This document shows, piece after piece, positions 15,747-56,873 of a stretch of DNA of 56,873 nucleotides. The stretch lies in NCBI GenBank assembly GCA_005879205.1, contig VBLD01000118.1, positions 4,218 through 61,090 of the forward strand, given 5' to 3'. The stretch's first letter is position 1. Each line of letters begins with the position of its first letter. The position numbers and the translations under genes were made by a program. The notes under the pieces were generated by a model. It made no database searches. It was given only the letters and a program-made list of their open reading frames with translations, and was not told the DNA's origin. Source of the stretch: Deltaproteobacteria bacterium. GTDB lineage: Bacteria; Desulfobacterota; Binatia; DP-6.

Positions 15747-15970
15747 TGCGAGTGCCGCTAACGGATAACCGGAGTCGAGTCAACGAATTGAAGCTGCACG
15801 ACGATCGTGGCCCCCCGCTGCCTTGACAATCCGTGGAGCGCGCGGCTAAACGAAAGAGAGAACGATCCCTCGCACGACTGGCGTTCGCGTGGAATTGACC
15901 ACGGGGGAGTGCTGATCGACCAGCGGGCCGAACGCCTGGGCCCACGGGGAACGGCGGGGTCCACGCAGTC

Positions 15971-17122: not shown

Positions 17123-17123
17123 G

Positions 17124-36346: not shown

Positions 36347-37557
36347 GGCTGCCGGCAGCGCATCGCGCCGGAGGAATCCCGGCAGGCGCCGATCGTCCCC
36401 TCGCGGTCGATGATCCCGTGCGTCGTGAACGTCAGGCTGACGGGAGGATGAAGGACGGCCGGATCGGCCAGCAGCGGGAAGCGCATGCTGAACTTGATCA
36501 CGTCGGGGTTTGACGACGCCGCGCTGAACTTCACCTCGAATGGCTCAGTGTCCTTCCGGCACGCGATGGCGCGACCGAGCGTGCGGCATTCCGTGTCTTC
36601 CCACTTGGCCGTGTGATCGAGCGCCAGGTCGTCCGTCACCCGAGCGGTGATCCCCCCTCGCGAGTCGAACGACTGCATCGGCGATGCCGGCTCGATCCGG
36701 AATTTCCCCTTCGCGCTGATGCTGCCGTATTTCCCCGCGCGACGACTGCCGCGGATGGACAGCGACGTGATGATCAGCTTCGCGTCGTTGCCGTCGCACG
36801 CGTCCCCGATGCCGTCCCGATCCAGATCGCCCTGGTCGGTGTTCGCGTAGTCGGGGCAGTTGTCGTCCGCGTCGCAGACGTGATCGCCGTCTCGGTCGCC
36901 GCCGCCGCCTTCGACGCACGTCCCTCCCTGGCAGGTGTCCGGAACCGAGCACGCCACATGGCTCCCCGTGTTACACGGGCTGCCGTCCGGCTTGGGCGGC
37001 GTCACGCAGACGCCGGTGGCCGGGTTGCACGTGCCCCCCATCGCGCACTGATCGACGGCATCGCACACCACCGGGTCCTTCGACGGGTTGGAGCAGATTC
37101 CCGTCGCCGGATCACAGGTGCCCGCGAGGTGGCAGGCGTCGATCGGAACGCACACCACGGGGTTCGAGCCGGTGCAGGCGCCGGCCTGGCAGGTGTCCGT
37201 CTGCGTGCAGCCGTTGCCGTCGTCGCACGCGGTGCCGTCGGGCAAGGCCACGTTCGAGCAACGACCCGTGTTCGCGTCGCACACCCCCGCGTGGCACTGG
37301 TCTTCCGCCGCGCACACGATCGGCTGACCGCCGATGCAGCGGCCGCCCGCGCACGTGTCGCTCTGGGTGCACGCGTTGCCGTCGTCGCATCGCGTTCCAT
37401 CGATCGCCGGGACGTGGCGGCAGGTCCGGGAGGACTGGTCGCAGCTATCGATCGTGCACGGATTGCCGTCGCCGCAGTCCGTATGCTTGTTGCAGCCGAG
37501 AGCCGGCGAGGCGCTCAGCAAGAGGAGCGAGAACGCAAAGGCCAAGAGCTCGTACAT
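36343..37557 (-). CDS. Secreted/lipoprotein with myxobacterial-type Cys-rich repeats and thrombospondin type-3-like Ca-binding repeats
   Basis: Signal peptide ending ALGC. About 8 tandem units of the form DGTxCDDGNxCTxxDxCxxGxCxG. Then GGGDRDGDHVCDADDNCPDYANTDQGDLDRDGIGDACD. GGAGGA SD before ATG 37557. Confidence 0.75.
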   Translation of the reverse strand: MYELLAFAFSLLLLSASPALGCNKHTDCGDGNPCTIDSCDQSSRTCRHVPAIDGTRCDDGNACTQSDTCAGGRCIGGQPIVCAAEDQCHAGVCDANTGRCSNVALPDGTACDDGNGCTQTDTCQAGACTGSNPVVCVPIDACHLAGTCDPATGICSNPSKDPVVCDAVDQCAMGGTCNPATGVCVTPPKPDGSPCNTGSHVACSVPDTCQGGTCVEGGGGDRDGDHVCDADDNCPDYANTDQGDLDRDGIGDACDGNDAKLIITSLSIRGSRRAGKYGSISAKGKFRIEPASPMQSFDSRGGITARVTDDLALDHTAKWEDTECRTLGRAIACRKDTEPFEVKFSAASSNPDVIKFSMRFPLLADPAVLHPPVSLTFTTHGIIDREGTIGACRDSSGAMRCRQP

Positions 37558-37788
37558 GGCGATTCCTCCAGAACCCCCTCGATCGTCCAGGCGCATGAGC
37601 AACCGGAGTGCCGGCCTCGTGGCATCGTGCGCGGGCAGGAAGCACGGCCCCCTTTCCCGGCGGGACGACCGGCGATGGCACGCCGACCTTGGCACCCTGT
37701 GCCAGGGACGGCCCATGCGCGGACTCGGATGACGCCGCCGTCGGCGGCAGGGATGCCGTCGCCCGGCGCTCGTGGTAGGGCTCGACCG

Positions 37789-39941: not shown

Positions 39942-39990
39942 ATGCACGTGCGTGGACGGACTCAACGCGTTACAAAGGCCCACCACTGAG

Positions 39991-40974
39991 ATGGTCGGCG
40001 CCGACTCGACCGCTCGCGCCAACGTGAACGTCGCCCTCGTCAAGTACTGGGGCAAGCGCGACACGGTGCTGAACCTCCCGGCGACGGGAAGCATCTCGCT
40101 CACCCTCGACGGACTCGGCACGGAGGCGGCGGTGGCCTTCGGCGGCGGTGGCGAGGCCGACCGACTCGCGATCGACGGCGTCGAGACGACCGGCGGAGAG
40201 GCGACCCGTGTGACGCGCTTCCTCGACCTCGTCCGTGCGGCGGCGCATCGACGCGAGCGCGCGACGGTGGCGATGCGCAGCACGGTGCCACGCGGTATCG
40301 GGCTCGCGTCGTCGGCAGCGGCCTTCGCGGCGCTCGCCCTGGCAGCGAGCCGCGCGGCAGGCCTGGCCCTCGACCCGCCGGGGCTCTCGGCTCTCGCCCG
40401 GCGCGGCTCGGGCTCGGCGTCGCGCTCGATCTTCGGCGGCTTCGTCGAGTGGCATCGCGGCGAGCGCGCCGACGGCGTCGATTCGTTCGCCGAGCCGCTC
40501 GCCCCGCTGGAGCACTGGGACGTGCGCACGGTCGTCGCGGTCACCAGCACGGCACCGAAGACCGTGTCCTCGCGCGACGGCATGGTGCGCACGGCGGCGT
40601 CGCCCTTCTATCCCGCCTGGGTGGCGGGCGCCGAGGCGGATCTCGCCGCGACCCGTGCCGCGATCCGCGCCCGCGACCTCGAGGCGCTCGGCCTCGTCGC
40701 CGAGCACAGTGCGCTCAAGATGCATGCCGCGGGCCTGGCGGCGCGGCCGCCGCTGGTCTATTGGCGCCCGGCCACCGTCGGGTGCATCCATCGCGTCTGG
40801 GCGCTCCGCGCCGAGGGGGTGAGCGCGTTCTTCACCATCGATGCGGGTCCCCAGGTGAAGGTGCTCTGCACCCCCGCCGATGCTCCGCGCGTGGCCGCCG
40901 CGCTCGAGGCCGTGCCGGGCGTCGAGCGCATCGTCACCTGCCGGCCTGGGCGCGGCGCGGAGCTGATCACGTGA
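39991..40974 (+). CDS. mvaD: Diphosphomevalonate decarboxylase
   Basis: ANVNVALVKYWGKRD, GLASSAAAFAALA, GSGSASRSIFGG, FFTIDAGPQV. In-frame GTG 39952 is an alternative start. Confidence 0.9.
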   Translation: MVGADSTARANVNVALVKYWGKRDTVLNLPATGSISLTLDGLGTEAAVAFGGGGEADRLAIDGVETTGGEATRVTRFLDLVRAAAHRRERATVAMRSTVPRGIGLASSAAAFAALALAASRAAGLALDPPGLSALARRGSGSASRSIFGGFVEWHRGERADGVDSFAEPLAPLEHWDVRTVVAVTSTAPKTVSSRDGMVRTAASPFYPAWVAGAEADLAATRAAIRARDLEALGLVAEHSALKMHAAGLAARPPLVYWRPATVGCIHRVWALRAEGVSAFFTIDAGPQVKVLCTPADAPRVAAALEAVPGVERIVTCRPGRGAELIT

Positions 40975-40993
40975 GCGCGAGCGAAGGATATCG

Positions 40994-41989
40994 ATGACCG
41001 AGGCCGTGGCCCGGGCGCCCGGGAAGCTCTTCCTGAGCGGCGAGTACGTGGTCCTGATGGGCGCGCCGGCGGTGCTGGCCGCGGTCGATCGCTATGCCGA
41101 GGTGCGGGTCGGGTTCGGCGAGAAGCCGGGACCCCTGGTCGTGACCTCGCTTGCCGAGGGCACGCGCTGGGAAGCGCCCGTCGCGCGCAACGAGATGCCG
41201 GGCGGCGACGCGGGCGCGGTGCTGGCCGCGCTGCATGCGGTTGCCGAGCGCGGCGGCATCGCCGCCCACCTCGGCGCCGACGTCACCGTCGACTCGCGCC
41301 CGTTCCTGGTGGGCGAGCGCAAGCTCGGGCTTGGCCGCAGCAGCGCAACGCTGGTGGCGGCCGTCGCCGCCTTCCTCGCGACCGCCGGCCGGCCAACCCG
41401 CGAGGGCATTCTCGAGCGCGCCCTCGCCGCCAACGCGCTTTTCCAGGAGGGTCGGGGCAGTGGCGCGGACCTCGCCGCGGCGGTGCACGGCGGGTTGGTC
41501 GAGGTACGCCGGAAGGACGCGGCGCTGCGCGTCCAGCCTCGCACGCTGCCGCGCGGCGTCCATCTGGTGGCGGGCTGGACCGGTGAGTCGGCGCCGACGG
41601 GTCTCCTGCTCGCCCGCTTCGCGGCGGCGACGGCGTACGAGCCGCGAAGTCTCGGTCCGCTGCGCGAGGTGGCCGCGCGGGCGGCCGAGGCCATCGAGCG
41701 CGGCGACGCGCAATCCCTGGCCGACGCCGTCGATCGCTCGGCGGACCTGCTCGAACGGCTCGGCTCGGAGGTGGACATCCCGATCGTCACCCCGGCGCTC
41801 GCCCGTCTCGTCGCCACGGCCCGACGGGTTGGGGCGGTCGCCAAGCCGTCGGGCGCCGGGGCCGGTGACTGCGGCATCGCGCTGGCGGGCTCGGCCGCCC
41901 AGGCGGCGCGCGTGCGGGCCGCCTGGCAGGAGGTCGGCATCGTCCCGCTGTCGGTCGAGATCGCGCCCGAAGGGGTGACCGGTGGCTGA
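40994..41989 (+). CDS. mvaK2: Phosphomevalonate kinase (GHMP family)
   Basis: APGKLFLSGEYVVL, KLGLGRSSATLVA, GSGADLAAAVHGG, AKPSGAGAGDCGIAL. Confidence 0.8.
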   Translation: MTEAVARAPGKLFLSGEYVVLMGAPAVLAAVDRYAEVRVGFGEKPGPLVVTSLAEGTRWEAPVARNEMPGGDAGAVLAALHAVAERGGIAAHLGADVTVDSRPFLVGERKLGLGRSSATLVAAVAAFLATAGRPTREGILERALAANALFQEGRGSGADLAAAVHGGLVEVRRKDAALRVQPRTLPRGVHLVAGWTGESAPTGLLLARFAAATAYEPRSLGPLREVAARAAEAIERGDAQSLADAVDRSADLLERLGSEVDIPIVTPALARLVATARRVGAVAKPSGAGAGDCGIALAGSAAQAARVRAAWQEVGIVPLSVEIAPEGVTGG

Positions 41990-43037
41990 GACGATCGGCG
42001 ACCGCAAGCGCTCGCATCTCGAGCTCTGCGAGGCGGCGGAGGTCGAGTATGCCGGCAAGACGACGCTCCTCGAGGAGGTCGACTTCGTCCACAACGCGCT
42101 CCCCGAGCTCGCGGTGGACGAGATCGACGTCGGCACCACACTGCTCGGCAAGCGGCTCCGCGCCCCACTCGTCATCAGCGGCATGACCGGCGGCACGGAG
42201 GAGGCGTCGGAGATCAATCGCGGTCTCGCGCGCGTGGCCGAGACGCACGGCATCGGCTTCGGGCTCGGCTCGCAGCGCGCCATGCACCGCGCCCCCGAGC
42301 TGGCCCACACCTTCGCGGTCCGCGAGCACGCGCCGACCACGCTCGTGCTCGCGAACCTCGGCATCGTGCAGGCCGCGGCGATGGCGCCCCGCGAAGTGCA
42401 GGAGCTCGCCCGGGCCGTGGGCGCGGACGCCGTCTGCATCCACCTGAACCCGGCGCAGGAGATGATCCAGGCGGGCGGCGACCGGGACTTCCGGCGCGGG
42501 GTCGCGACGCTCGGACGCCTGGTCGGCGAGCTGTCGCTGCCCGTCGTCGTCAAGGAGACGGGCTGCGGGCTGTCGCGCGGGGTGGGGGAGCGTCTGAAGG
42601 CCGCGGGCATCCGGGTGGCCGACGTGTCCGGCGCGGGCGGGACGTCGTGGGTGAAGGTCGAGACGCTGCGCGCCGGCAGCCGCGAGCGGGAGCTCGGGGC
42701 GCTGTTCGCGGACTGGGGCATCCCGACGGCTGCCACGCTGCTCGGTCTCCGCGGTCTCGGGCTCGAGCTCATCGCGAGCGGCGGCATCCGCACCGGCCTC
42801 GACGTCGCCAAGGCGATCGCGCTCGGGGCGCACGCGGCGGGGATGGCCCTGCCGGTCTTCCGGGCCTACCGGGAGGGTGGCGTCGAGGCGGCCGGCGCGT
42901 ACGTCGACCGTCTCGTCGCCGGCCTCAAGCTGGCGATGGTACTCACCGGCTCACGCGACCTCGAGACGCTCGGGCATGCGCCCGTGGTGCTCGGAGGCCG
43001 GCTGAGAGACTGGCTCGTCGCGGAAGGAGGCGCATGA
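41982..43037 (+). CDS. fni: Type 2 isopentenyl-diphosphate delta-isomerase (FMN-dependent)
   Basis: RKRSHLE, PLVISGMTGG, LGSQRA, HLNPAQE, VVVKETGCGLS, VSGAGGTSW, ASGGIRTGLD. Confidence 0.9.
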   Translation: MAETIGDRKRSHLELCEAAEVEYAGKTTLLEEVDFVHNALPELAVDEIDVGTTLLGKRLRAPLVISGMTGGTEEASEINRGLARVAETHGIGFGLGSQRAMHRAPELAHTFAVREHAPTTLVLANLGIVQAAAMAPREVQELARAVGADAVCIHLNPAQEMIQAGGDRDFRRGVATLGRLVGELSLPVVVKETGCGLSRGVGERLKAAGIRVADVSGAGGTSWVKVETLRAGSRERELGALFADWGIPTAATLLGLRGLGLELIASGGIRTGLDVAKAIALGAHAAGMALPVFRAYREGGVEAAGAYVDRLVAGLKLAMVLTGSRDLETLGHAPVVLGGRLRDWLVAEGGA

Positions 43038-44317
43038 GTACGTCACGCATTCCGGCGTTCTACCAGCTCAGTGTGGAAGAGCGGCGCCGGCGGCTCGCGG
43101 AGGTGCTCGACCTGTCGGCCGCCGAGGTCGAGGCGCTGACGGCGGCGGATGCCCTGCCGCTCGACGTCGCCGACATCATGATCGAGAACGCCGTCGGCAC
43201 GTTCGCCCTGCCGTTCGGCGTGGCGCTCAACTTCCAGGTGAACGGGCGCGACCACGTGATCCCGATGGTGGTCGAGGAGCCGTCGGTGATCGCGGCGGCC
43301 TCGTACGCGGCGCTGATTGCGCGCGAGGCCGGCGGCTTTGTCGCCGAGGCGGAGCCGGGCGCGATGATCGGGCAGATCCAGCTCATCAACGTCGCGGATC
43401 CGGGCGCGGCCGTGGAGCGCCTGGGGGCGTCCCGGGCCCGACTCCTCGCCGCCGCCGAGGAGGCGACGCCGGGGCTCTGCCGGCGAGGCGCCGGCCCGCG
43501 CGACGTCGAGGTCCGGCTGGTGCGCTCGCCGCGCGACGAGACGATGGTGGTCGTCCACGTGCTGCTCGACACCGGCGACGCGATGGGCGCCAACGCCGTC
43601 AACTCGCTGGTCGAGACGCTCTCGCCCATGGTCGAGGAGATCGCCGGCGGCACGGCCTGCCTGCGCATCCTCTCGAACCTCGCCGACCGGCGCCTGGCGC
43701 GCGCGGCGGTACGCATCCCCTTCTCGGCGCTCGAGCGCGACGGCCTGGACGGTGCCGAGGTGGCCGAGCGGGTCCTCTACGCGTACGAGTTCGCGGCGTC
43801 CGACCCGTATCGGGCCGCCACGCACAACAAGGGCATCATGAACGGCATCGACGCGCTCGCGGTGGCGACGGGAAACGACTGGCGCGCGATCGAGGCCGGG
43901 GCGCACGCCTATGCCTGCCGCGACGGCGGATACGGCTCGCTCAGCCGGTGGCAGATCGAGAAGGGCATGCTCGTCGGGTCGCTCGAGCTGCCGATGGCGG
44001 TGTCGACCGTCGGACCGGTGGTGCAGTCCCATCCACGCGTGCGGCTCGCGCTGCGCATCCTCGGCGTCTCGGGCGCCCGGGAGCTCGCCGGGATCATGGC
44101 GGCGGTGGGGCTCGCCTCGAACCTCGCGGCGATGCGGGCGCTCGCCACCGAGGGGATCCAGAAGGGCCACATGGCGCTCCATGCGCGGGCGGTGTCGCAC
44201 GCCGCGGGGGCGCGAGGGGAGGAGGCCGAGGAGCTTCGCCGCCGCCTGCTGGCGGCGGGCGAGGTGAAGATCGATCGCGCGCGGGAGCTGCTGCGCGCGC
44301 TGGAGCCGCGCTCGTGA
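43034..44317 (+). CDS. mvaA: Class II HMG-CoA reductase
   Basis: MIENAVGTFALPFGVA, PMVVEEPSVIAAAS, DTGDAMGANAVN, ATHNKGIMNGIDA. ATGA overlap with fni. Confidence 0.9.
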   Translation: MSTSRIPAFYQLSVEERRRRLAEVLDLSAAEVEALTAADALPLDVADIMIENAVGTFALPFGVALNFQVNGRDHVIPMVVEEPSVIAAASYAALIAREAGGFVAEAEPGAMIGQIQLINVADPGAAVERLGASRARLLAAAEEATPGLCRRGAGPRDVEVRLVRSPRDETMVVVHVLLDTGDAMGANAVNSLVETLSPMVEEIAGGTACLRILSNLADRRLARAAVRIPFSALERDGLDGAEVAERVLYAYEFAASDPYRAATHNKGIMNGIDALAVATGNDWRAIEAGAHAYACRDGGYGSLSRWQIEKGMLVGSLELPMAVSTVGPVVQSHPRVRLALRILGVSGARELAGIMAAVGLASNLAAMRALATEGIQKGHMALHARAVSHAAGARGEEAEELRRRLLAAGEVKIDRARELLRALEPRS

Positions 44318-45231
44318 AGGCGTCCGCTCGCGGCCGCGCCGCGGGCAAGGTGATCCTGCTCGGGGAGCACGCCGTGGTGTACGGCCGCCCGGCGCTCGCC
44401 GCCGGTCTGCCGCTCTGGCTCGAGGCGGAGGTCGTCGCTGGAGAGGGGCCGGCGCGGTTCGAGAGCGACCGGCACGCCGACGACCCGCGGGCGGCGCGTC
44501 TCATCGCCGAGGCCGCGGCCGCGGTCGGGCTCGAGCCGCGCGGCCTCGTCGTCCGCGTGCGTTCGGACGTCCCGGCCGGCGTCGGCGTCGGCAGCTCGGC
44601 GGCGCTGGCAGTCGCCGTCCTGCGCGCGCTGGCGGCGGCCGCGGGGCGGCGGCTCGCGCGCGACGAGGAGCTCGAGGTCGCCACGCGCCTCGAGTCGATC
44701 TTCCACGGCCATCCGTCGGGCATCGACCCGGCGGCGGCGGCGCTCGGTGGCTGCTTCCGGTTCGTGCGCGGCACGCCGCCGGTGGTCGCGCCCGTGCGGC
44801 CCGTCGTGCCGCTGCCGCTGGTGATCGCCTTCGGCGCACGGCCGCGCAGCACCGGCGCCGCGGTCATGGGGCTCCGCGCCCGCTGGGAGGCCGACCGCGC
44901 CCGGCACGAGGCGCTGTTCGACGCGGTCGCGGCCACCGTGGAGGACGGCGCGCGGGCCGTCGAGGCGGGCGACCTCGCGGCGCTCGGCCGCGCCTTCGAC
45001 CGCAACCAGACGCTGCTCGAGACAATCGGCGTGTCGGCGCCGGAGGTCGAGGCGCTGGCCGCGCGCGCGCGGGCCGCGGGCGCGCTCGGCGCGAAGCTGA
45101 CGGGCGGCGGGGCGGGGGGCGCCGTGGGGGCACGCGCGCCCGACCCCGAGCGGCTCGCCGGGGCACTCGGCGCCGACGGCACGCGGACGATCGTGGCGCA
45201 CGTGGGGGCGGCGGCGGAGGAGGCGGCCTAA
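44314..45231 (+). CDS. mvk: Mevalonate kinase (GHMP family)
   Basis: GKVILLGEHAVVYG, PAGVGVGSSAALAVA, SGIDPAAA, AKLTGGGAGG. GTGA overlap with mvaA. Confidence 0.85.
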   Translation: MKASARGRAAGKVILLGEHAVVYGRPALAAGLPLWLEAEVVAGEGPARFESDRHADDPRAARLIAEAAAAVGLEPRGLVVRVRSDVPAGVGVGSSAALAVAVLRALAAAAGRRLARDEELEVATRLESIFHGHPSGIDPAAAALGGCFRFVRGTPPVVAPVRPVVPLPLVIAFGARPRSTGAAVMGLRARWEADRARHEALFDAVAATVEDGARAVEAGDLAALGRAFDRNQTLLETIGVSAPEVEALAARARAAGALGAKLTGGGAGGAVGARAPDPERLAGALGADGTRTIVAHVGAAAEEAA

Positions 45232-45234
45232 CGG

Positions 45235-47190
45235 ATGAGCACATCGGAGGGACGGCTGACACTGGTGGGCGGATCGACCGGCGAGGGTCTTCCCGTCCGG
45301 GTTCCCCAGGCGATCGCGCGCGCCAGCCAGTACCTGTTCGCCACCCAGCACGCGCGTGGCTACTGGCATGCGCCGCTCGAGGCGAATGCCACGATGGAGG
45401 CCGAGTACGTCTTCTTCAACCGCGTGCTCGGCCGCGAGCGGCCGGACGTCGAGCGGCGTCTGGCCGAGCGACTTCTCGGGCTCCAGCAGGCGGACGGGAG
45501 CTGGCCGATCTATTACAACGGGCCTGGCGGCCCGTCGGCCACGATCGAAGCTTACTTCGCGCTCAAGCTCATCGGTATGAACGGGACCGAGCCGGCGCTC
45601 GCCCGCGCCCGTGACTTCATCAGGGGCCAGGGCGGACTCGCGCGGGCGGGTGTCTTCACGCGCATCTGGCTCGCCTACTTCGGCCAGTTCCCGTGGGCCG
45701 GCGTCCCGTCCCTGCCCGTCGAGCTCGTGCTGCTGCCGCCGTGGTTCCCGCTCAACATCTACGCGATGTCGAGCTGGGCGCGCGGCACCGTGGTGCCGCT
45801 GACGCTGCTCATGGCGCACCGGCCGGCGGTTCGGATCGAGCCGGACGCCGGCGTATCGGAGCTGTGGCTCGGGCCGCCCACGCGCGAGGAGCTGGCCTTT
45901 GCGCGCTCGCCCGAGCTGGTGACGATGCGTAACTTCTTTCTCGCCGTCGACCGCGCGCTGAAGTCGCTGGCCCCCTTCTCGTGGCGCGGGCTCCGCCGCC
46001 GTGCGGTCGCGCGCGCCATCGAGTGGATCCTCCGGCATCAGGACACGAACGGCCAGTGGGGCGGCATCCAGCCGGCGATGGTGAACGCCGTGCTCGCGCT
46101 CCACGCGGTCGGCTTCGCGGCCGATCATCCGGCGATGATGAGCGGCATCCAGGGCGTGGAGGACTTTCTCGTCGAGTGCGAGGGCACGCTCATGTACCAG
46201 CCCTGCGTGTCGCCCAACTGGGACACGGCGCTCGCCGCCAGGGCGCTCCTCGACGCCGGGCTCGACGCCGCGCACCCGGCGCTCGGGCGCGCCGCCGACT
46301 GGCTCGTCGCCAACCAGATATTCCGACGCGGCGACTGGTCGGTGCTGAACCCGAGGCTCGAGCCCGGCGGATGGGCGTTCGAGTTCGCCAACGACTGGTA
46401 CCCCGACGTCGACGACTCGGCCGTGATCCTGACGGTGCTCGACGCGCTGCCCGTCGCGCGCACCGCGGAGGGGAAGCGGGCGATCGCCTACGGGCTCAAC
46501 TGGACGCTCGGCATGCAGAGCCGCGACGGTGGCTGGGCCGCCTTCGACACCGACAACACGGCCGCGTTCCTGAATCGCATCCCGTTCGCCGACATGGAGG
46601 CGATGATCGACCCGCCCACCGAGGATCTGACCGGACGCCTGCTCCACCTGATGGGCACCGTCGGCTACACGCTCGATTTCGGGCGGGCGCGGCGCGCCGT
46701 CGAGTTCCTGCGGCGCACGCAGCGGAGCGACGGCAGCTGGTGGGGTCGCTGGGGCGTCAACTTCGTCTACGGGACGTGGTGTGCGCTCGCCGGCCTCGAG
46801 CGGATCGGGGAGGACATGCGCGCGCCCTGGGTGCGGCGCGCCGTCGAGTGGCTGACCGCGCGCCAGAATCCGGACGGCGGCTGGGGTGAGACGGTGGCTT
46901 CCTACGACGACGAGGCGCTCGCCGGACGGGGCGAGAGCACGCCGTCGCAGACGGCGTGGGCGCTGCTCGGGCTCCTCGCCGCCGACGGGCCGTCGAGCGC
47001 CGCCGTCGAGCGCGGCGTCGACTGGCTCCTCCGCACCCAGGGGCCGGACGGCACCTGGGAGGAGCGTGCGTTCACCGGCACGGGGTTCCCGCGGCACTTC
47101 TATCTGCGCTACCACCTCTACCGGCACTACTTCCCCTTGATGGCGCTCGGGCAGTACCGGGCGCGGCTGGCGGCGAGGAACGAGGGATGA
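45235..47190 (+). CDS. shc: Squalene-hopene cyclase
   Basis: Repeated QW motifs (QxxDGSW, QDTNGQWGG, QSRDGGW, QRSDGSWWGRWG, QNPDGGWGE, QGPDGTWEE) and the catalytic DVDDSAV (DxDD) box. Confidence 0.95.
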   Translation: MSTSEGRLTLVGGSTGEGLPVRVPQAIARASQYLFATQHARGYWHAPLEANATMEAEYVFFNRVLGRERPDVERRLAERLLGLQQADGSWPIYYNGPGGPSATIEAYFALKLIGMNGTEPALARARDFIRGQGGLARAGVFTRIWLAYFGQFPWAGVPSLPVELVLLPPWFPLNIYAMSSWARGTVVPLTLLMAHRPAVRIEPDAGVSELWLGPPTREELAFARSPELVTMRNFFLAVDRALKSLAPFSWRGLRRRAVARAIEWILRHQDTNGQWGGIQPAMVNAVLALHAVGFAADHPAMMSGIQGVEDFLVECEGTLMYQPCVSPNWDTALAARALLDAGLDAAHPALGRAADWLVANQIFRRGDWSVLNPRLEPGGWAFEFANDWYPDVDDSAVILTVLDALPVARTAEGKRAIAYGLNWTLGMQSRDGGWAAFDTDNTAAFLNRIPFADMEAMIDPPTEDLTGRLLHLMGTVGYTLDFGRARRAVEFLRRTQRSDGSWWGRWGVNFVYGTWCALAGLERIGEDMRAPWVRRAVEWLTARQNPDGGWGETVASYDDEALAGRGESTPSQTAWALLGLLAADGPSSAAVERGVDWLLRTQGPDGTWEERAFTGTGFPRHFYLRYHLYRHYFPLMALGQYRARLAARNEG

Positions 47191-48431
47191 CCGCCGGCAT
47201 CGAGCGCCTCGCCGTTTACGTCCCGTCGTTTTCGCTGCCGCTCGCCGAGCTGGCGCGCGCGCGTGGCGTGCCGCCCGAGAAGATGACACAGGGGCTCGGC
47301 GTCGAGGCGATGGCCATCGCGCCGCCCTGCGAGGACGTCGTCACCATGGCGGCGACGGCGGGCGCCCGGCTGCTGCGCGCGGCGGGCATCGATCCCGACA
47401 CGATCGGCATGCTGCTGGTCGCCACCGAGACCGGCGTCGACAACGCCAAGCCGGTCGCGATCTTCGTGCACGAGCTGCTCGGCGTCGGTCGCCGCTGCCG
47501 CGTCTACGAGCTGAAGCACGCCTGCTACGCCGGGACTGCGGGGCTCATGACGGCGGCGGACTGGGTACGCGCCGGCGGCGGGCGGCCGCGGCGCGCCCTG
47601 GTCATCGCCGCCGACATCGCGCGCTACGCGCTCGGCTCGCCCGGCGAGCCGACGCAGGGCGCCGGCGCCGTCGCCATGCTCGTCGGGGCCGAGCCGAAGG
47701 CCCTCGCCCTCGACGAGGAGACGGGCACGTACGCCGACAACGTCTACGACTTCTGGCGTCCGATCGGGCGGCGCGAGGCCCTGGTGGACGGCAAGTACTC
47801 GGTCGAGTGCTACCTCGAGGCGCTCGCCGGCGCCTTCACGGCGTACCGCGCCGGTGAGCGGCCACTCCTCGGCCCCGACGAGGCGCTCGCCGATCGCCTG
47901 ACGCGGCTCCTCTATCACACGCCCTTTCCCAAGATGGCGATGAAGGCACATCGTCGCCTCGTCGAGCTCGACTGGCGCGCCGCGCCCGCGCGCTGGGCGC
48001 GAGTCGGCCCGGGCGTGGAAGACGCGGCAGTGGCGTCGTATCGCGAGGCGGTGGCGCCCGGGCTCGCGGCCGTCGCGCGGGTGGGGAACACCTACACGGC
48101 GTCGCTCTATCTCTGTCTCGCCTCGCTCCTCGAGGCCGAAGGCGCGGGACTCGCCGGCCGCCGGCTCGGGCTCTTCTCCTACGGCAGTGGCTGCTGCGCG
48201 GAGTTCTTCACCGGCACCGTGTCTCCGGATGTGGCGGCGGTCGCGGACGCGGGCGTCGGGGATGTGCTCGCGCGGCGCACCGTGATTGACGTGGCCGAGT
48301 ACGAGCGGTTGGCTGGAGCTGGCGAGGCGGGCGGCGAGCCGCCGCCGGGCTTCATGGGCGAGTTCGTGCTGCACGGCATTCGCAACGACCGGCGGGAGTA
48401 CGGTCGCGTGAGGGCGGCCCTCGCGGCATGA
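47187..48431 (+). CDS. mvaS: HMG-CoA synthase
   Basis: VATETGVDNAKP, catalytic Cys block YELKHACYAGT, GEPTQGAGAVAMLV, YHTPFPKM, GNTYTASLY, FSYGSG. ATGA overlap with shc. Confidence 0.9.
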   Translation: MTAGIERLAVYVPSFSLPLAELARARGVPPEKMTQGLGVEAMAIAPPCEDVVTMAATAGARLLRAAGIDPDTIGMLLVATETGVDNAKPVAIFVHELLGVGRRCRVYELKHACYAGTAGLMTAADWVRAGGGRPRRALVIAADIARYALGSPGEPTQGAGAVAMLVGAEPKALALDEETGTYADNVYDFWRPIGRREALVDGKYSVECYLEALAGAFTAYRAGERPLLGPDEALADRLTRLLYHTPFPKMAMKAHRRLVELDWRAAPARWARVGPGVEDAAVASYREAVAPGLAAVARVGNTYTASLYLCLASLLEAEGAGLAGRRLGLFSYGSGCCAEFFTGTVSPDVAAVADAGVGDVLARRTVIDVAEYERLAGAGEAGGEPPPGFMGEFVLHGIRNDRREYGRVRAALAA

Positions 48432-49324
48432 GCGCGGTGCTCGAGGAAGCGATGCGGGGGCCGAGCCCCGCCGAGTTGGCGGCCGCGTATGCACACTGTG
48501 CGCGCGTGGCCCGCACGCACTACGAGAATTTCACGATCGGCTCCTGGCTCCTGCCGAGGCGCCTTCGCCACGACTTGGCGGCGGTGTACGCCTTCGCGCG
48601 GGGCGCCGACGACATCGCCGACGAAGGCGAGACCGATCGGCGCGACCGAATCGGCCGCCTGAACGCGTGGGAAGAGAAGCTCCTCGCCTGCGCCCGTGAC
48701 CCGGGCGCCGCCGGCGACCCGCTCTTTCGGGCGCTCGGCCACACGATCGCGGCGCATGCGCTGCCGCTCGAGCCGTTCCGCGATCTCCTGGCTGCGTTCC
48801 GCCGCGACGCGGCGGGCGAGACGCGCCGCTTCGCGACGTTCACCGACCTGCTCGGCTACTGTCGCTGCTCCGCCAATCCCGTGGGTCGCCTCGTGCTCGC
48901 GCTCTTCGGCCACCAGGATGCCGAGCGCCAGCGCCGCGCCGACGACATCTGCACGGCGCTCCAGCTGACGAACTTCTGGCAGGACGTCGCCGGCGACCTC
49001 GACTGCGGCCGGGTCTACCTCCCCGACGAGGACCTCGAGCGCTTTCCTGGCAGTCGCGAGGCGCTCGCCACACGCCGGACGAACGCCGCCTTCCGGGGAC
49101 TGCTGGCGTTCGAGATTGCCCGCACCCGCGCGCTGTTCGAGCGCGGCCTGCCGCTCGCCGACATGGTCGGCCGGCGGCTCCGGCACGAGGTGCGCATCTT
49201 TGCGCGCGGCGGCCTTGCAATCCTGGCCCGTATCGAGGCGGTCGACTACGACGTCTTCCGTCGCCGTCCGACCCTCGGTCGCGCCGAGCTGCTCCGGCTG
49301 GTCGTGCGGGGGCTCTGGCGATGA
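48428..49324 (+). CDS. hpnC: Hydroxysqualene synthase HpnC (squalene/phytoene synthase family)
   Basis: HYENFTIGSWLLPRRLR, YAFARGADDIADEG, LQLTNFWQDVAGD. ATGA overlap on both sides. Confidence 0.8.
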   Translation: MSAVLEEAMRGPSPAELAAAYAHCARVARTHYENFTIGSWLLPRRLRHDLAAVYAFARGADDIADEGETDRRDRIGRLNAWEEKLLACARDPGAAGDPLFRALGHTIAAHALPLEPFRDLLAAFRRDAAGETRRFATFTDLLGYCRCSANPVGRLVLALFGHQDAERQRRADDICTALQLTNFWQDVAGDLDCGRVYLPDEDLERFPGSREALATRRTNAAFRGLLAFEIARTRALFERGLPLADMVGRRLRHEVRIFARGGLAILARIEAVDYDVFRRRPTLGRAELLRLVVRGLWR

Positions 49325-50220
49325 GCACGCCGGCGCTCGTCACCACTCCGCTCGCCGCGGCCTACGAGTATTGCGCGGCGCGCACCCGTCGCGCGTCGTC
49401 GAACTTCTACTGGGGCTTCCGGCTGCTCACGCCCGAGCGGCGCCGCTCGCTCTGCGCGGTCTACGCGTTCTGCCGGGCGGCCGACGACATCGCCGACGAG
49501 CCCGGCGCGACGGCCGATCCGGAGCGGCTCCTGGCGCGCTGGCGGGCGGAGCTCGACGCGGTCTACCGGGGCCGCCCGCGCCACCCGATCGGCGTCGCGC
49601 TGGCCGACACCGTCGAGCGTTTCGCGATCGCGCGCGAGCACTTCGAGGCCGTCATCACGGGCGTCGAGACGGACCTCCGGCGCGACCGCTACGAGACGTG
49701 GGAAGGTGACCTCGCCGCGTACTGTCATTGCGTGGCGAGCTCGGTCGGCCTGATCGCGATCGAGATCTTCGGCTACCAGAACCCCTCGGCGCGCCAGTAT
49801 GCCGTGCACCTCGGGCTGGCGTTCCAGCTCACCAACATCCTGCGCGACGTCGCCGAGGACGCGCGCCGCGGCCGCATCTACCTGCCGCGCGAGGACCTCC
49901 GGCGCTCCGGCTGCCCCGAGGAGGACGTCCTCGCCGGGCATTGCACGGAGGCGTTCCGGCGCGTCATGGCGTTCGAGTGTGCGCGCGCCGGCGAGCACTA
50001 TGGGCGCGCGCGCTTCCTGCTGGCCGAGGAGGACCGGCCGACGCTCGCGCCCGCCGAGGCGATGCGTCTCATCTACGAGCAGCTGCTGCGCCGCGTGATG
50101 TTCCGCCGCTACGACGTCTTCGGGCCGAAGGTGCGGCTCACGCGGCCGGAGAAGGCGGGGCTCGCGATGGCGGCCTGGGCTCGCCCGCACCTGAGCTTCC
50201 TCTACCGGCTGGTGGGATGA
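49321..50220 (+). CDS. hpnD: Presqualene diphosphate synthase HpnD
   Basis: SNFYWGFRLLTPERRRSLCAVYAFCRAADDIADE, FQLTNILRDVAEDARRGRIYLP. Confidence 0.8.
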   Translation: MSTPALVTTPLAAAYEYCAARTRRASSNFYWGFRLLTPERRRSLCAVYAFCRAADDIADEPGATADPERLLARWRAELDAVYRGRPRHPIGVALADTVERFAIAREHFEAVITGVETDLRRDRYETWEGDLAAYCHCVASSVGLIAIEIFGYQNPSARQYAVHLGLAFQLTNILRDVAEDARRGRIYLPREDLRRSGCPEEDVLAGHCTEAFRRVMAFECARAGEHYGRARFLLAEEDRPTLAPAEAMRLIYEQLLRRVMFRRYDVFGPKVRLTRPEKAGLAMAAWARPHLSFLYRLVG

Positions 50221-51632
50221 CCGCCCCGCCCCGCGTCGCGGTGGTGGGCGGCGGCTTCGCGGGGCTTGCCGCGGCCGTCCGTCTGGCGCGCCGGGGTGCC
50301 GCCGTGACCCTCGTCGAGCGGCGTCCCTTCCTCGGTGGCCGGGCCTACTCGTTCACCGATCCCGCCACCGGCGACGTGGTGGACAACGGGCCGCACGCTC
50401 TCATGGGCGCCTACACGGCGGCGCTCGACTTCCTCGGCGAGATCGGCGCCACGGCGAAGCTCGCGTTCCAGCCGCGCCTCCGCGTGGCGCTGGCGGATCC
50501 CGGGCTCGGCCTCGGCGTCGTCGCCGCGCCGCCGCTGCCGGGTCCCCTCCAGGCGCCCGCCGCGCTGCTCCGCTATCGCCTGCTCGGCCCGCGTGACCGG
50601 GTGCGGCTGCTCACGGGGGCGGTCCGCCTGGCCGCTCGCTCGTCGGGGTCGCTGTCCAGGACGACCGTGGCGGAGGCGCTGGCGGCAGTCGGACAGTCGC
50701 CGGCAGCCTGCGCCCGCTTCTGGCATCCGCTCGCGATCGCGACGCTGAACGAGCTGCCCGGCGCCGCGGCCGCGGCGCCCTTCGCCGCGGTCCTCCGCAA
50801 GGCCTTCTTCGCCGGCGCGCGCGCTGCCCGCTTCGCGCTCTCCCGCGTGCCGCTCTCGGAGCTGTACACGGTGGATGCGCAGCGCGCGATCGAGCGGGCG
50901 GGCGGCACGGTGCGGACCGGCGCCGCAGTGGCCACGCTCGCGCTCGGCCCGGAGGGCGTCGAGGCCCTCGTCCTCCGCGACGGCACCCGCGTCGCAGCCG
51001 ACGCCGTCGTGCTGGCCGTCCCGGTGGCGGCGCTTCTCCGGCTGCTTCCGTCGCGGCTCCGCGACGCGCCGCCGTTCCGGCCGCTCGCCAGCGTCGGGAC
51101 GTCGCCGATCGTCAGCGTCCACGTCTGGCTCGACCGTCACGTCGGCTGGGGCGGCCCCTTCCTCGGTCTGCTCGGCGGCCGCGCGCAGTGGCTCTTCGAC
51201 GCCGGCGTGGCGGCGGATGGTGGCCACCGGATCGCGAGCGTGACCAGCGGCGCCCGCTTCTGGGACGACGCCGCCGACGACGAGATCGCGGCCGAGGTGC
51301 TGGCCGATGCTGCGGCGGTGCTGCCGGCGCTCGGGCGCGTGCGGGTGCGACGCACGCTCGTCATCCGCGAGCGACACGCCACGCTCTCGCTCACGCCGGC
51401 CGCCGACGCGGTCCGGCCCGACGTCGAGACGCCGGTCGCCAACCTCTTCCTGGCCGGCGACTGGGTTCAGACCCACCTCCCCGCGACCATCGAGAGCGCC
51501 GTGATCTCCGGTCGCGCGGCGGCGGACCGGGCGCTCCCGGCAGCGACGCGACGGGCGCGGCCGGTACCCTGGCGCCCGGACGCCCCGGCCCCGAGCGCCC
51601 TCCCTTCCGCGACACTCCCTCCCTCGCCCTAG
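50217..51632 (+). CDS. hpnE: Hydroxysqualene dehydroxylase HpnE (FAD amine-oxidase family)
   Basis: VAVVGGGFAGLAAAVRLARRG, LGGRAYSF, LFLAGDW...ATIESAVISG. ATGA overlap with hpnD. Confidence 0.8.
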   Translation: MTAPPRVAVVGGGFAGLAAAVRLARRGAAVTLVERRPFLGGRAYSFTDPATGDVVDNGPHALMGAYTAALDFLGEIGATAKLAFQPRLRVALADPGLGLGVVAAPPLPGPLQAPAALLRYRLLGPRDRVRLLTGAVRLAARSSGSLSRTTVAEALAAVGQSPAACARFWHPLAIATLNELPGAAAAAPFAAVLRKAFFAGARAARFALSRVPLSELYTVDAQRAIERAGGTVRTGAAVATLALGPEGVEALVLRDGTRVAADAVVLAVPVAALLRLLPSRLRDAPPFRPLASVGTSPIVSVHVWLDRHVGWGGPFLGLLGGRAQWLFDAGVAADGGHRIASVTSGARFWDDAADDEIAAEVLADAAAVLPALGRVRVRRTLVIRERHATLSLTPAADAVRPDVETPVANLFLAGDWVQTHLPATIESAVISGRAAADRALPAATRRARPVPWRPDAPAPSALPSATLPPSP

Positions 51633-54700: not shown

Positions 54701-55074
54701 GCCGTGCGACGAGGTTACCGAGCGCCGGGCGGTCGCGCGCAGCCTCGTCTTTCGGGACGGCGCCGGATCGGCGCCAGCTTCGCCCGCCCAAAGAATTAGC
54801 ACGTGCCTGCCCCCGCGCTGCGAACCGGCGTTCACAGGCCGCCGCCGTCGGGCCACGGTTCACCCGCCGCGCGGCCGTGTCGGACGAACTGACGCCGCCG
54901 GTCAACCTCCCGGACTCGGTCGCTCGTTCGGGTTTCCCCGCTGCCGTTCGTCGAACAGAGGAGGACGATGCCATGCCGTATGCGTTGGCCCTCGTGCCGC
55001 GCCCGCCCTGTTGCTTCAGCAGGCCCCTGGTGTATGCGCCAGGAATCCACGTCACCCGCAGGAGGGACAAACGC

Positions 55075-55683
55075 ATGAAGGTCTACGATTTCGTCGGAGC
55101 GCCGAACCCGAAGAAGCTGCGCGTGTACCTCGCCGAGAAGGGCATCAACATCGCGTCGCAGCCGGTCAACATCGTGACCGGGGAGAACCGCCAGCCGGAG
55201 TTCCTCAAGAAGAACCCGCTCGGCGGCCTGCCCGTCCTCGAGCTCGACGACGGCAGCCAGTTGACCGAATCGCTCACCATCATGGAGTACCTCGAGGAGC
55301 TGAATCCCAAGCCGCCGATGATCGGGACGACGCCGATCGAGCGCGCCCGGGTGCGCGAGCTCGAGCGCATCTGCGAGCTCGGCGTGCTGTCGTCGGTGGC
55401 GCAGGTATTCCAGAACACCCATCCGTTCATGGCCGGTCGGCTGAAGCAGTCCCCGGACGCGGCCGAGAACGCGCGCAACCGGCTGGCGGCCAACCTGAAG
55501 GTCGTGGACACGAAGATCGGTGACCGGCCGTTCGTCGCCGGATCGCGGCCGTCGATCGCCGACTGTACGCTGTTCGCGGCGCTGGAGTTCGCCGAGTTCG
55601 CGCAGGTGCCGCTCGATCCGGCGTTCAAGAACATCAACCGCTGGTACGCGGGCTTCAAGGAGCGCCCGAGCGCGCAGGCCTAG
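55075..55683 (+). CDS. Glutathione S-transferase
   Basis: MKVYDFVGAPNPKKLRVYLAEKGI, NPLGGLPVLELDDGSQLTESLTIMEYL, and a C-terminal alpha domain. GGAGGGA SD. In-frame ATG 54973, also with a strong SD, would add 34 aa. Confidence 0.85.
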   Translation: MKVYDFVGAPNPKKLRVYLAEKGINIASQPVNIVTGENRQPEFLKKNPLGGLPVLELDDGSQLTESLTIMEYLEELNPKPPMIGTTPIERARVRELERICELGVLSSVAQVFQNTHPFMAGRLKQSPDAAENARNRLAANLKVVDTKIGDRPFVAGSRPSIADCTLFAALEFAEFAQVPLDPAFKNINRWYAGFKERPSAQA

Positions 55684-55686
55684 CGC

Positions 55687-56485
55687 GTGCTGACTCTTCT
55701 CGGACCGCTGCTCGCGGCGGGCGGCTTCGGGCTCTACTTCCTCTCGAGCTTCCGCCTCGCGCGCTACCGGCGCCGTCCATGGGAGTTCGTCGCGCTCGTC
55801 GCCGCCGGGGCGGTGCTCGGCGCGTACCGCCTGGCGGCGGCGCCGAGCGCCGCGACGGCGACGGCCGCCGCGCTCGCCGTCGGCATCCTCGCCTTCGCCT
55901 GCTGGTTCCTCTTCTCGTTCTCGATGTACGGCGAGCGCGAGGACCGGCCGCGGGTCGGCGAGCGGTTCCCCGACTTCACGCTGCCGACCTCCGACGGCCG
56001 CATCTTCCGGCTGGCCGAGGCCCGCGGCCGCCGCCTGCTCCTCGTCTGCTACCGCGGCATCTGGTGACCCTTCTGCACGACGGAGCTCGGCGAGCTCCGC
56101 CGTCACTATCGGGAGATCCGCGAGCGCGGCGTCGACGTGCTCGCCGTCAGCGTCGACCCGCCGGAGGTGTCCGAGAAGCTCCGGCAGAAGCTCGGCGTCG
56201 GCATCCGCTTTCTCTCCGACGAGCGCGGCATCCTGATGAACGCGCTCGACGTCCGCGATCGCGACGCATTGCCGCCGGACTTCGTCACCGGCGGTCTCGG
56301 CAAGGGTCGCGAGAGCCGGGACATCTTCCTCGCCACGAGCTTCCTCGTCGACGAGGGCGGGGTCATCCGCTGGGTCTCCCGCCCGGACACCTACCGTGTC
56401 CGCGCCTCCGCGCGCGAGGTGCTGGAGGCGATCGACGCTCTCGGGGCGCGCGCCTCTCAGCGCGCGCGCGTCGGTGTCGACGTAG
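55687..56485 (+). CDS. Membrane-anchored peroxiredoxin-like (AhpC/TSA-redoxin) protein, probable selenoprotein (TGA 56065-56067 = Sec)
   Basis: GTG start, 3 TM helices, then FPDFTLP...LLLVCYRGIW-TGA-PFCTTEL...VLAVSVDP...FLVDEGGVIRWV...EVLEAIDAL in one frame with >90% third-position G/C. As printed the frame stays open to 56841. The end 56485 (TAG) assumes a 1-nt indel in the (CG)5 run at 56461-56470 (see findings). Confidence 0.65.
56077..56103 (+). promoter_or_regulatory. SECIS-like hairpin downstream of the in-frame TGA
   Basis: ACGACGGAGCTC-GGC-GAGCTCCGCCGT: 12-bp stem with one A.C mismatch and a G-containing apical loop, beginning 10 nt after the TGA. Confidence 0.5.
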
Positions 56486-56873
56486 CCGAGGGCGCGAAGA
56501 CGGCGCTCCGTGTCCGGGTCGACGACGGTCGTCTCGGCCGCCGCCTGCGGCGCCCGCGCCAGGCGGAGCCGCGCCGCGGTCTGGCGCGCGTAGCCGACGA
56601 CGACCGGCCGCTCGCCCGCGAGGTCCCTGCGCTCCGCGGGGTCCGCGCCGAGGTCGTAGAGCTCTACGCGCTCCGCGCCCGGTCGCGTCTGGCCCCAGAC
56701 CGCCTTCCACTGCCCCGCGACCACGCCGGTCAGAGTCGGGTGAGCGAGCTGCGTTTCCATCATCGCGTAGTCTCTTCGTCCAGGGGGCCTCCGACGACGA
56801 CGGAACGTACGTCCAGGCCTGGGTCGGAAAGGCCGTGGTGACCGGGCTCGTTCGTGGGCAACTTTCAGTTCCT
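56457..56873 (-). pseudogene. Sulfatase-family gene, 3' portion, frame-broken (runs off the window)
   Basis: Minus frame reads ...QLAHPTLTGVVAGQWKAVWGQTRPGAERVELYDLGADPAERRDLAGERP...RLRALGYVD (typical sulfatase C-terminus, ~93% third-position G/C). The preceding GHHGLSDPGLDVRSVVVGGP block lies in another frame and ends at a TGA overlapping 56761-56763. There is no in-frame stop after LGYVD as printed. Confidence 0.5.

Follow-up and report, generated by a model that had tools for sequence, protein, structure and literature searches.

Is the TGA codon at positions 56065-56067 the end of a gene, or does it encode selenocysteine (Sec) in the middle of one? The codon lies in contig VBLD01000118.1 of a Deltaproteobacteria bacterium assembly (GTDB lineage Binatia; DP-6), of which we analysed a stretch of 56,873 nucleotides, hereafter called the window. 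An original prediction, made from the letters of this DNA, had described a membrane-anchored peroxiredoxin-like selenoprotein whose gene is cut at this TGA by open reading frame (ORF) calling. Our comparisons point the same way, and we place the probability at about 90% that the region from 55687 to about 56485 (+) is one gene, with a UGA decoded as Sec and a bacterial Sec insertion sequence (bSECIS), which ORF callers split in two. The predicted parts of this gene are as follows.

55687-56064, + strand: selenoprotein coding sequence, part 1, codons 1-126, ending ...CYRGIW (the N-terminus aligns with homologue N-termini; G/C at third codon positions, GC3, 0.96)
55687-55920, + strand: N-terminal membrane anchor of three hydrophobic helices (Kyte-Doolittle hydropathy; model of the homologue P0002)
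55954-56373, + strand: AhpC-TSA/Redoxin thioredoxin-fold domain, residues 90-229 (PF00578, PF08534; structural neighbours)
56065-56067, + strand: UGA codon 127, predicted Sec; the UxxC motif U-P-F-C occupies 56065-56076 (aligns with an invariant Cys)
56068-56459, + strand: selenoprotein coding sequence, part 2, codons 128 to ~258, PFCTTELGEL ... YRPDTYRVRA ... EAIDALGARAS, up to a (GC)n tract (GC3 0.92-0.95)
56081-56099, + strand: putative bSECIS core, an 8-bp stem CGGAGCUC/GAGCUCCG with a GGC triloop, dG -12.7 kcal/mol (conserved in TGA forms)
56077-56103, + strand: extended hairpin, in which 3 more pairs (ACG/CGU) lie below the core, beyond an A.C mismatch, -17.7 kcal/mol (lower stem specific to the window)

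The reading frame around the TGA and its hairpin

Read literally, the gene starts at GTG 55687 and stops at TGA 56065-56067, giving the 126-codon ORF of the original prediction, which ends ...LLLVCYRGIW. Beyond the TGA, the same frame reads PFCTTELGELRRHY... / PFCTTELGELRRHYREIRERGVDVLAVSVDPPE..., and the GC3, 0.96 before the TGA, stays at 0.95 and 0.92 over two consecutive blocks of 60 codons past it, bearing out the earlier statement that the frame continues with more than 90% G/C at third positions. When the TGA is bridged, the AhpC-TSA domain is recognised by Pfam (PF00578, E=9.2e-28, 97.1 bits against a cutoff of 26), as is Redoxin (PF08534, E=4.1e-20). The two matches cover residues 90-229/242, unbroken across the TGA, which is residue 127.

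Is this TGA exceptional in its surroundings? A scan of the window for TGA codons flanked on each side by 50 stop-free codons with the coding signature of the genome gave two matches only in 56.9 kb, at 56065-56067 and at 52969. The latter was rejected as a second Sec candidate, being the junction of two adjacent genes that share one frame. TGA 56065-56067 is the sole TGA in the window with a coding signal on both sides inside one domain. No further gene with an in-frame TGA was found in the window or in the flanks of 10 related loci, where such arrangements were only adjacent genes in the same frame.

What do the relatives of this protein carry in place of the TGA? First, a protein search returned about 19 full-length homologues of 234-285 residues and 47-60% identity, all of which have W-C-P-F-C where the window has W-TGA-P-F-C. 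None of them ends at this column, as a genuine stop there would have implied. Second, in a locus survey that took one genome per species, a TGA was found at this very column in seven other species-level genomes (L003, L005, L006, L009, L010, L011 and L014), labelled Thermodesulfobacteriota, delta proteobacterium, Myxococcota or Myxococcales in their metagenome-assembled genome (MAG) records, while TGC or TGT is found in L004, L007 (Candidatus Binatia), L008, L012, L013, L015 and L016 and in all distant relatives. The alignment proposed with the original prediction, asking for Cys or Sec at this column, is thereby answered with Cys in the homologues and TGA in seven other species. Six of the TGA-form orthologues have an intact ORF and are 54-69% identical to the window protein in pairwise comparison. 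In 7 of the 8 TGA-form loci, namely L003, L005, L006, L009, L010, L011 and the allele of the window's own species in L001, the ORF runs intact to a stop just past the AIDAL motif. The eighth, L014 (10376-10801), has a frameshift about 20 codons past the Sec codon, either an indel error of the MAG or a real inactivation.

The part of the protein past the TGA is well conserved. Across the seven TGA-form species, 37% of the columns after the TGA are invariant, against 14% in the transmembrane region, and on this comparison the sequence past the TGA is judged to be under protein-level purifying selection. Moreover, Sec and Cys forms are interleaved in a rough neighbour-joining tree, which suggests repeated Sec/Cys conversion. 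As a separate observation, the database proteins nearest to the N-terminus of the window protein, P0020 and P0023 (58-72% identity), have the first transmembrane region joined straight to the C-terminal part. We rejected the idea that they are N-terminal fragments cut at the TGA, since they are fused to the C-terminal part with the active site left out; errors of assembly or gene calling around the TGA may have produced them.

How might the ribosome be directed to insert Sec at this UGA? The segment 56077-56103 folds into a hairpin of 11 pairs with one A.C mismatch and a GGC loop. The fold given in the original prediction as a 12-bp stem with this mismatch and loop is thus recovered, and conservation is limited to its upper 8 bp and the GGY loop; below the mismatch, the 3 bp are specific to the window, and other orthologues make different lower stems. 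The stem begins 13 nt and the loop 21 nt from the UGA. The published bSECIS model asks for a loop of 3-9 nt, a stem of 4-16 bp, a G in the first two loop positions, a UGA-to-loop distance of 16-37 nt and a minimum free energy (MFE) of at most -7.5 kcal/mol (PMC13188914). The core in the window fits this model throughout, with a loop of 3 nt, a stem of 8 bp, GG at the start of the loop, a distance of 21 nt and -12.7 kcal/mol, so that the position and shape of the hairpin are those expected of a bacterial SECIS element, as first proposed. The Rfam scan of the window at gathering thresholds gave no SECIS-type match.

The conservation of the hairpin follows the codon at the active site. The core CGGAGCUC-GGY-GAGCUCCG is the same in 8/8 TGA-form orthologues at an equal distance from the UGA, the only variation being GGC or GGU in the loop, and it occurs in 0/14 Cys forms. 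Conservation at orthologous loci, on which the original prediction had made its reading depend, is therefore found where the TGA is present and is missing where Cys is encoded. When seven TGA-form species are aligned codon by codon, nucleotides stay unchanged over the longest stretches at three places in the gene: the 5′ arm (11 nt), the 3′ arm (9 nt) and TGGTGACC (8 nt). Among degenerate columns whose amino acid is invariant, the codons are identical in 7 of 10 within codons +1 to +13, as compared to 7 of 62 elsewhere (p=2e-4). The T-E-L-G-E-L-R peptide encoded by the hairpin is likewise fixed in the Sec forms and variable in the Cys forms. A side observation concerns L004:10355-10420, where a Cys form (TGC) holds a degraded hairpin, ACCGAGCUCGGUCAGCUCCGC, with two substitutions in the arms; it resembles a remnant left by a recent change from Sec to Cys.

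Base-pair covariation comes from a wider set of sequences. A metagenome scan for R-G-x-W-TGA-P-F-C, with the downstream sequence unconstrained, found at least 120 loci (L083-L202). Among the matches listed, to which the following counts of TGA forms refer, nearly all read through into a redoxin domain, and they form several subfamilies with differing sequences after the UGA. Under a strict rule, which requires a contiguous stem of at least 5 bp in addition to the bSECIS criteria, a compliant hairpin is present in 69 of 116 distinct TGA forms of the [F/Y]RGxW-TGA-PFC family versus 8 of 83 Cys forms (p=1e-13), with loops such as AGUU, AGUUR, GGY, GGUC and similar. In the largest sister subfamily, PFC-N-[S/L]-E-L-R-[S/G], the five core pairs form in 100% of the 27 sequences, with compensatory switches at two of the pairs (U-A/U-G/C-G and C-G/U-A). 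The covariation score observed there was reached by 0 of 500 shuffles, and slid controls were far lower. The subfamilies differ in their hairpins, examples being CUCCGCC-AGUU-GGCGGAG, AACUCCG-AGUUR-CGGAGUU and GCUCCAAG-GNC-UUGGAGC.

The scaffold and its predicted UxxC site

The three transmembrane helices of the original prediction were recovered as hydrophobic 19-mers at residues 1-19, 34-52 and 60-78 in Kyte-Doolittle hydropathy. As the structure model we used the AlphaFold model of P0002, a Cys homologue with 60% identity to the window protein (predicted local distance difference test, pLDDT, 85.5), which agrees in placing helices at 2-25, 33-52 and 56-79. The model also contains a thioredoxin fold, whose CxxC lies at a helix N-cap. 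The loop between the first two transmembrane helices, RLARYRRRPWE, is strongly positive. By the positive-inside rule, on which the orientation is based, this suggests that the redox domain faces the cytoplasm at the membrane surface.

Is the protein a peroxiredoxin (Prx)? In a Foldseek search with the P0002 model, the BCP/PrxQ/AhpE structures scored highest (template-modelling scores of 0.84-0.89 for Bcp4, AhpE and PrxQ), with ResA at 0.83, and the fold is thus the Prx-type thioredoxin fold. The best sequence match in the PDB is the BCP-type peroxiredoxin 5enu (E=7.6e-15), where a profile search aligns YRGdWCPfCqtE with YPKDNTPGCTTE. In this alignment, the Sec column falls on the Thr of PxxxTxxC, C130 falls on the peroxidatic Cys, and the Pro column is Arg. 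The alignment with ResA, through GTWCPHCKKE, matches both Cys positions. The motif is accordingly a thioredoxin-like UxxC (U-P-F-C) in place of the TxxC/TxxU of peroxiredoxins, and the canonical PxxxTxxC is absent, the window reading R-G-I-W-U-P-F-C. Also absent is the catalytic Arg that precedes the xTF(L/I)ID strand in peroxiredoxins: this position is Pro in the family consensus (LPTTFLLD) and Ala in the window (FLATSFLVD). As to the latter segment (56314-56337), the window and most of its closest relatives, Sec and Cys forms alike, have Ala or Ser in the ResA-type cis-Pro column (checked in L003, L005, L006, L009 and L010).

In the NCBIfam family models, the scores of ResA (51.8 against a cutoff of 170), BCP (43.5 against 140), PrxQ (42 against 260), SelL-related (37.9 against 120) and PrxU (31.5 against 270) all stay below threshold, and no NCBIfam peroxiredoxin equivalog or ResA subfamily is reached. 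Judged from sequence and model together, the protein is a peroxiredoxin-like scaffold with a thioredoxin/ResA-like active site. We call it “Prx-like” and not a canonical peroxiredoxin, because the predicted Sec corresponds to the N-terminal Cys of a thioredoxin-like CxxC and the second Cys lies on the peroxidatic Cys. The earlier claim that the TGA sits at the redox Cys column holds for the homologues, where it is the first Cys of CxxC; relative to true peroxiredoxins it is the Thr column, not the peroxidatic Cys.

These data also bear on what the enzyme would do. It could be a true peroxidase, acting on membrane lipid or other hydroperoxides instead of serving as a thiol-disulfide oxidoreductase, as the nearest structures are those of BCP/PrxQ/AhpE with scores of up to 0.89, C130 lies on the peroxidatic Cys, and Sec would be a good peroxide-reactive nucleophile; a membrane tether would moreover suit lipid hydroperoxides. 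We nevertheless regard a peroxidase as unlikely, though a serious contender. Three non-Cys residues of the Prx site are missing (Pro replaced by Arg, Thr by Sec/Cys, and Arg by the cis-Pro column, which is Ala in the window), the scores of the peroxiredoxin equivalogs in NCBIfam are far under their cutoffs, and the class has been described with a thioredoxin-like UxxC motif (PMC1088965).

Selenium use and other explanations of the UGA

Several points weigh against a Sec-encoding gene. First, Pfam and NCBIfam gave no selA, selB or selD among the ~58 ORFs of the window (56.9 kb), none lies in the flanking DNA retrieved for related loci, and no tRNA-Sec was found in the window, which has no tRNA gene at all, or in 14 related loci. 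Second, the hairpin of the window taken by itself is not better than shuffles (60-nt MFE, z=-0.78), and its significance thus comes from comparative data only. Third, the stem is invariant in the window's own subfamily, which therefore shows no covariation, and the covariation described above is that of the sister subfamily. Fourth, the tree in which Sec and Cys forms are interleaved was built by neighbour joining and is unbootstrapped. Finally, the window as assembled has a frameshifted C-terminal end, and the case for selenium in its protein is one of sequence comparison throughout.

Does the organism use selenium at all? Two genes of the window indicate that it does. SenA, the selenoneine synthase, is encoded at 29114-30424 (-) (NCBIfam, 516.6 bits against a cutoff of 420), and SenB, the selenosugar synthase (TIGR04348), at about 30471-31454 (+) (391.9 bits against 300). 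The two genes form a divergent pair without an adjoining SelD/SenC homologue, unlike the canonical senC-senB-senA cluster. SenB uses selenophosphate from a SelD homologue, and Sec synthesis begins with this same SelD step (bioRxiv 10.1101/2022.04.13.486033). The presence of senA and senB therefore implies that a selenophosphate synthetase is encoded elsewhere in the genome, and marks the organism as a dedicated selenium user. Another apparent link to selenium, an “Omp28-related selenoprotein” at 36343-37563 (-), was rejected: the match is weak and partial (33 bits, cutoff 200), the gene has no in-frame TGA, and it encodes instead a secreted Cys-rich protein with thrombospondin-type-3-like Asp-rich repeats.

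We also compared the locus with two further assemblies of the same species from other samples (ERZ28573540 and ERZ27315254, giving L001 and L002), which are 99.76% and 99.85% identical to the window. Both have the identical 126-aa ORF and TGA. In both, gene calling yields a 126-aa protein without a Pfam hit and then a downstream fragment. In L001 this fragment has 114 aa and a faint AhpC-TSA match; in L002 it is a 76-aa ORF truncated where the contig ends. This is the split that the original prediction expected of gene callers. The comparison also clarifies the end of the gene, for which two further features are needed.

56460-56469, no strand: (GC)5 tract, (GC)3 in L001, which frameshifts the 3′ ends of both convergent genes (comparison with L001)
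56483-56485, + strand: TAG ending the gene in the L001 allele, with a 264-aa product ...QRASVST* (frame +1 in the window)

The gene had first been taken to end at TAG 56483-56485. In the window this TAG lies in frame +1, and the literal frame meets no stop past the predicted Sec codon until TGA 56839-56841; the proposed end holds in the L001 allele only, where the gene stops exactly at that TAG after 264 residues, ending ...AIDALGARASQRASVST. The end of the window's gene is out of frame because the window has four extra bases, GCGC (56460-56463), in the (GC)n run as compared to L001. This difference would be either a strain variant of the microsatellite type or an assembly error. The conserved domain is untouched by it, and only the last few codons are altered.

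What else could explain the UGA? One explanation accepts the codon as real without Sec: the gene would encode a 126-aa membrane protein, or a near-cognate tRNA (Trp or Cys) would allow a low level of read-through, or TGA would be reassigned. In its favour, the Sec machinery of this genome is presumptive, and a UGA followed by C is a leaky termination context. Reassignment, however, was rejected, because 26 of the 46 genes in the window end in TGA as a normal stop and no other gene has an internal TGA. A truncated product would lose the whole catalytic domain, yet this domain is conserved. Furthermore, conservation of a hairpin at the nucleotide level and limited to the TGA forms is explained by SECIS function only, and the organism has a selenium pathway. 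Taken together, we consider a UGA that is not read as Sec improbable.

Still less probable, in our estimate, is a pseudogene, in which a TGC-to-TGA nonsense mutation killed a Cys-type redoxin and left the downstream frame to decay. The frameshifting (GC)n indel near the 3′ end of the window allele, the frameshift past the hairpin in L014 and the lack of visible Sec machinery in the window speak for it. But the indel hits the last few codons only and is absent from L001, and the sequences neighbouring L014 in its genome look indel-prone. A decaying frame would also hardly leave the TGA in place in seven other species and more than 100 metagenome loci with intact downstream ORFs, the protein past the TGA conserved to the same degree as the part of the domain before it, the downstream GC3 at 0.92-0.95, and the synonymous sites frozen exactly over a SECIS-type hairpin. 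A sequencing or assembly error hiding a true TGC or TGT, for which the probable assembly or strain indel 400 bp away might be cited, can practically be dismissed, because the TGA is present in all three assemblies of this species, each from a different sample, and in the seven other species.

We thus favour Sec insertion at this codon, and propose the following mechanism, which is drawn from the sequence comparisons above. Decoding: UGA 56065-56067 would be read as Sec, giving a product of about 264 residues with the active site U127-P-F-C130, in which three N-terminal transmembrane helices would tether the peroxiredoxin-like domain of thioredoxin fold. The hairpin core at 56081-56099, 13 nt past the UGA, would act as the bSECIS by binding SelB·GTP·Sec-tRNA(Sec) and bringing it to the ribosome paused at the UGA. 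At the same time, the hairpin, as part of the coding sequence, would encode the T-E-L-G-E-L-R segment of the helix that follows the active site, and it is because of this double role that the peptide and its codons are fixed in the TGA forms and variable in the Cys forms.

Catalysis: The selenolate of U127 may attack an oxidised substrate, which could be a disulfide or a sulfenate and possibly a hydroperoxide. A selenenylsulfide with C130 would then form and be reduced by a thiol reductant. The insertion of Sec, the binding of SelB, the substrate, the reductant and the topology are all predicted here from sequence features.

Neighbours, relatives and known systems

The neighbours of the gene on its two sides are as follows.

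54973-55683, + strand: glutathione S-transferase (GST), whose stop lies 3 nt before the selenoprotein GTG (Pfam GST_N/GST_C on the called gene; weak NCBIfam GST-family matches)
56457-56763, - strand: convergent 100-aa ORF MMETQL...ELYDLGADPAERRDLA..., not part of the selenoprotein (no Pfam match)

Functional coupling with the upstream GST was considered and rejected, since neither a GST nor any other conserved neighbour is found in 14 related loci. The convergent ORF ends at TGA 56459-56457 in L001 and is frameshifted in the window by the same (GC)n indel.

Farther away, the window contains several other systems. A ZMP/ZTP riboswitch (RF01750) at 15864-15948 (+), the only Rfam match in the window (53.8 bits against a gathering threshold of 39), precedes genes for a class-V aminotransferase (16034-17122), D-3-phosphoglycerate dehydrogenase (17010-18695) and adenylosuccinate synthetase (18753-19991). 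A Ku-domain protein of bacterial non-homologous end joining (26125-27006, -) adjoins a MerR-TPR regulator (25270-26124). A long co-directional mevalonate cluster occupies 39988-51632 (+), with diphosphomevalonate decarboxylase, GHMP kinases, and HMG-CoA reductase and synthase; it also includes a squalene-hopene cyclase, two squalene/phytoene synthase-like genes and an amine-oxidase-type flavoprotein, a set of the hopanoid type.

How far does the membrane-anchored form extend? Among the metagenome matches listed, 51 of the 94 TGA-form loci with complete 5′ ends have at least three hydrophobic segments before the Sec codon. Since this is about half of them, the membrane anchor is common in the family. 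By type, the xRQLAx proteins in that set are short and soluble, and the xxELxG proteins have three to four N-terminal hydrophobic segments. Tentatively, and with less than even confidence, we raise the idea of a distinct, undescribed clan of membrane-anchored Prx-like UxxC selenoproteins, with three to four N-terminal transmembrane helices and its own SECIS in each subfamily, which would be widespread in environmental bacteria, systematically mis-annotated as a small membrane protein and a redoxin fragment lacking a start, and might form a selenol redox system at the membrane surface, accompanied in this organism by selenoneine synthesis.

What does the locus mean for annotation and for selenium biology? 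In the window and in the two assemblies of the same species, a catalytic selenoprotein is reported as two meaningless ORFs, and its annotation can now be corrected. Well over a hundred related loci carry this in-frame TGA too. Restoring such genes alters the estimates of selenium use for high-GC environmental lineages of the delta-proteobacterial kind. The locus is also a clean example of a SECIS within an ORF that constrains the protein. Moreover, because senA and senB lie in the same 57-kb window, one organism probably combines selenoprotein and selenoneine synthesis, and it is a useful candidate in which to study how the two pathways divide selenophosphate between them. Nothing in the locus overturns the current understanding.

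The comparison with known systems begins with the insertion signal. Like bacterial SECIS elements of the E. coli fdhF type and the bSECISearch consensus, the hairpin is a stem-loop directly 3′ of the UGA within the ORF, with a small apical loop starting G[G/U] and a similar spacing and dG. It differs in its very short GGY triloop, in its perfect 8-bp GC-rich stem, and in that no bulged U was identified in it.

Among the enzymes, PrxU (the Eubacterium acidaminophilum type; NF040737) shares the AhpC/TSA fold and Sec at the redox centre. In PrxU, however, Sec occupies the position of the peroxidatic Cys (PxxxTxxU), whereas the predicted Sec of the window lies three residues earlier, in the Thr column, and the peroxidatic column is Cys; this agrees with the low score on NF040737 given above. 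The BCP/PrxQ/AhpE proteins (PDB 3hjp, 5enu, 4x0x) are the best structural matches, and the second Cys of the window lies on their peroxidatic Cys. They have no membrane anchor and no Sec, while the window protein has neither PxxxT nor the catalytic Arg. The SelL-related redox protein (NF040769) and eukaryotic SelL resemble it in the Prx-like fold, in the position of the redox motif and in having selenoprotein members; the score on NF040769, well under its cutoff, shows that the window protein is not a member.

The ResA/TlpA/CcmG group is alike in its membrane tether and, residue for residue with ResA, in W-C-x-x-C (WCPHC in the 3c71 variant). The family consensus LPTTFLLD resembles LPTTFLIN of ResA, with the cis-Pro included, and ResA is the best NCBIfam match. 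The differences are that this match falls short of its cutoff, that the anchor has three transmembrane helices instead of one, that the domain is predicted to be cytoplasmic by the positive-inside rule, that the window protein has Ala in the cis-Pro column, and that the overall structure is nearer to BCP/PrxQ.

The closest of the known systems are the Prx-like selenoproteins. A Prx-like UxxC class with a thioredoxin-like motif has been reported (PMC1088965), as the “Prx-like protein” of the Sargasso Sea; “Prx-like 1, pfam00578, UxxC” accounted for 225 sequences in the Global Ocean Sampling (GOS) survey (PMC2398784); and “Prx-like thiol:disulfide oxidoreductase, PF00578, UxxC”, represented by WP_010940744.1 in a 2026 review, is listed among the prokaryotic selenoproteins predicted with high confidence (PMC13188914). 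Most of the first finds of the family came from Deltaproteobacteria (PMC1794560), and few bacteria have as many selenoproteins as delta-proteobacterial lineages, Anaeromyxobacter among them (PMC1794560; PMC13188914). The relatives of the window come from genome records that bear the labels Thermodesulfobacteriota, delta proteobacterium, Myxococcota or Binatia MAG. A literature search for Binatia together with selenocysteine found no paper, and the published survey descriptions of Prx-like selenoproteins that we compared mention neither an N-terminal three-helix anchor nor a C-terminal YRPDTYRVRA motif. In other respects the likeness is close: PF00578, UxxC, many Cys homologues, and a hairpin SECIS in the ORF just past the UGA are common to both, a likeness drawn from the published descriptions. 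UxxC “Prx-like” selenoproteins have been described since 2004-2005, and the gene of the window, so matched, appears to belong to that known class.

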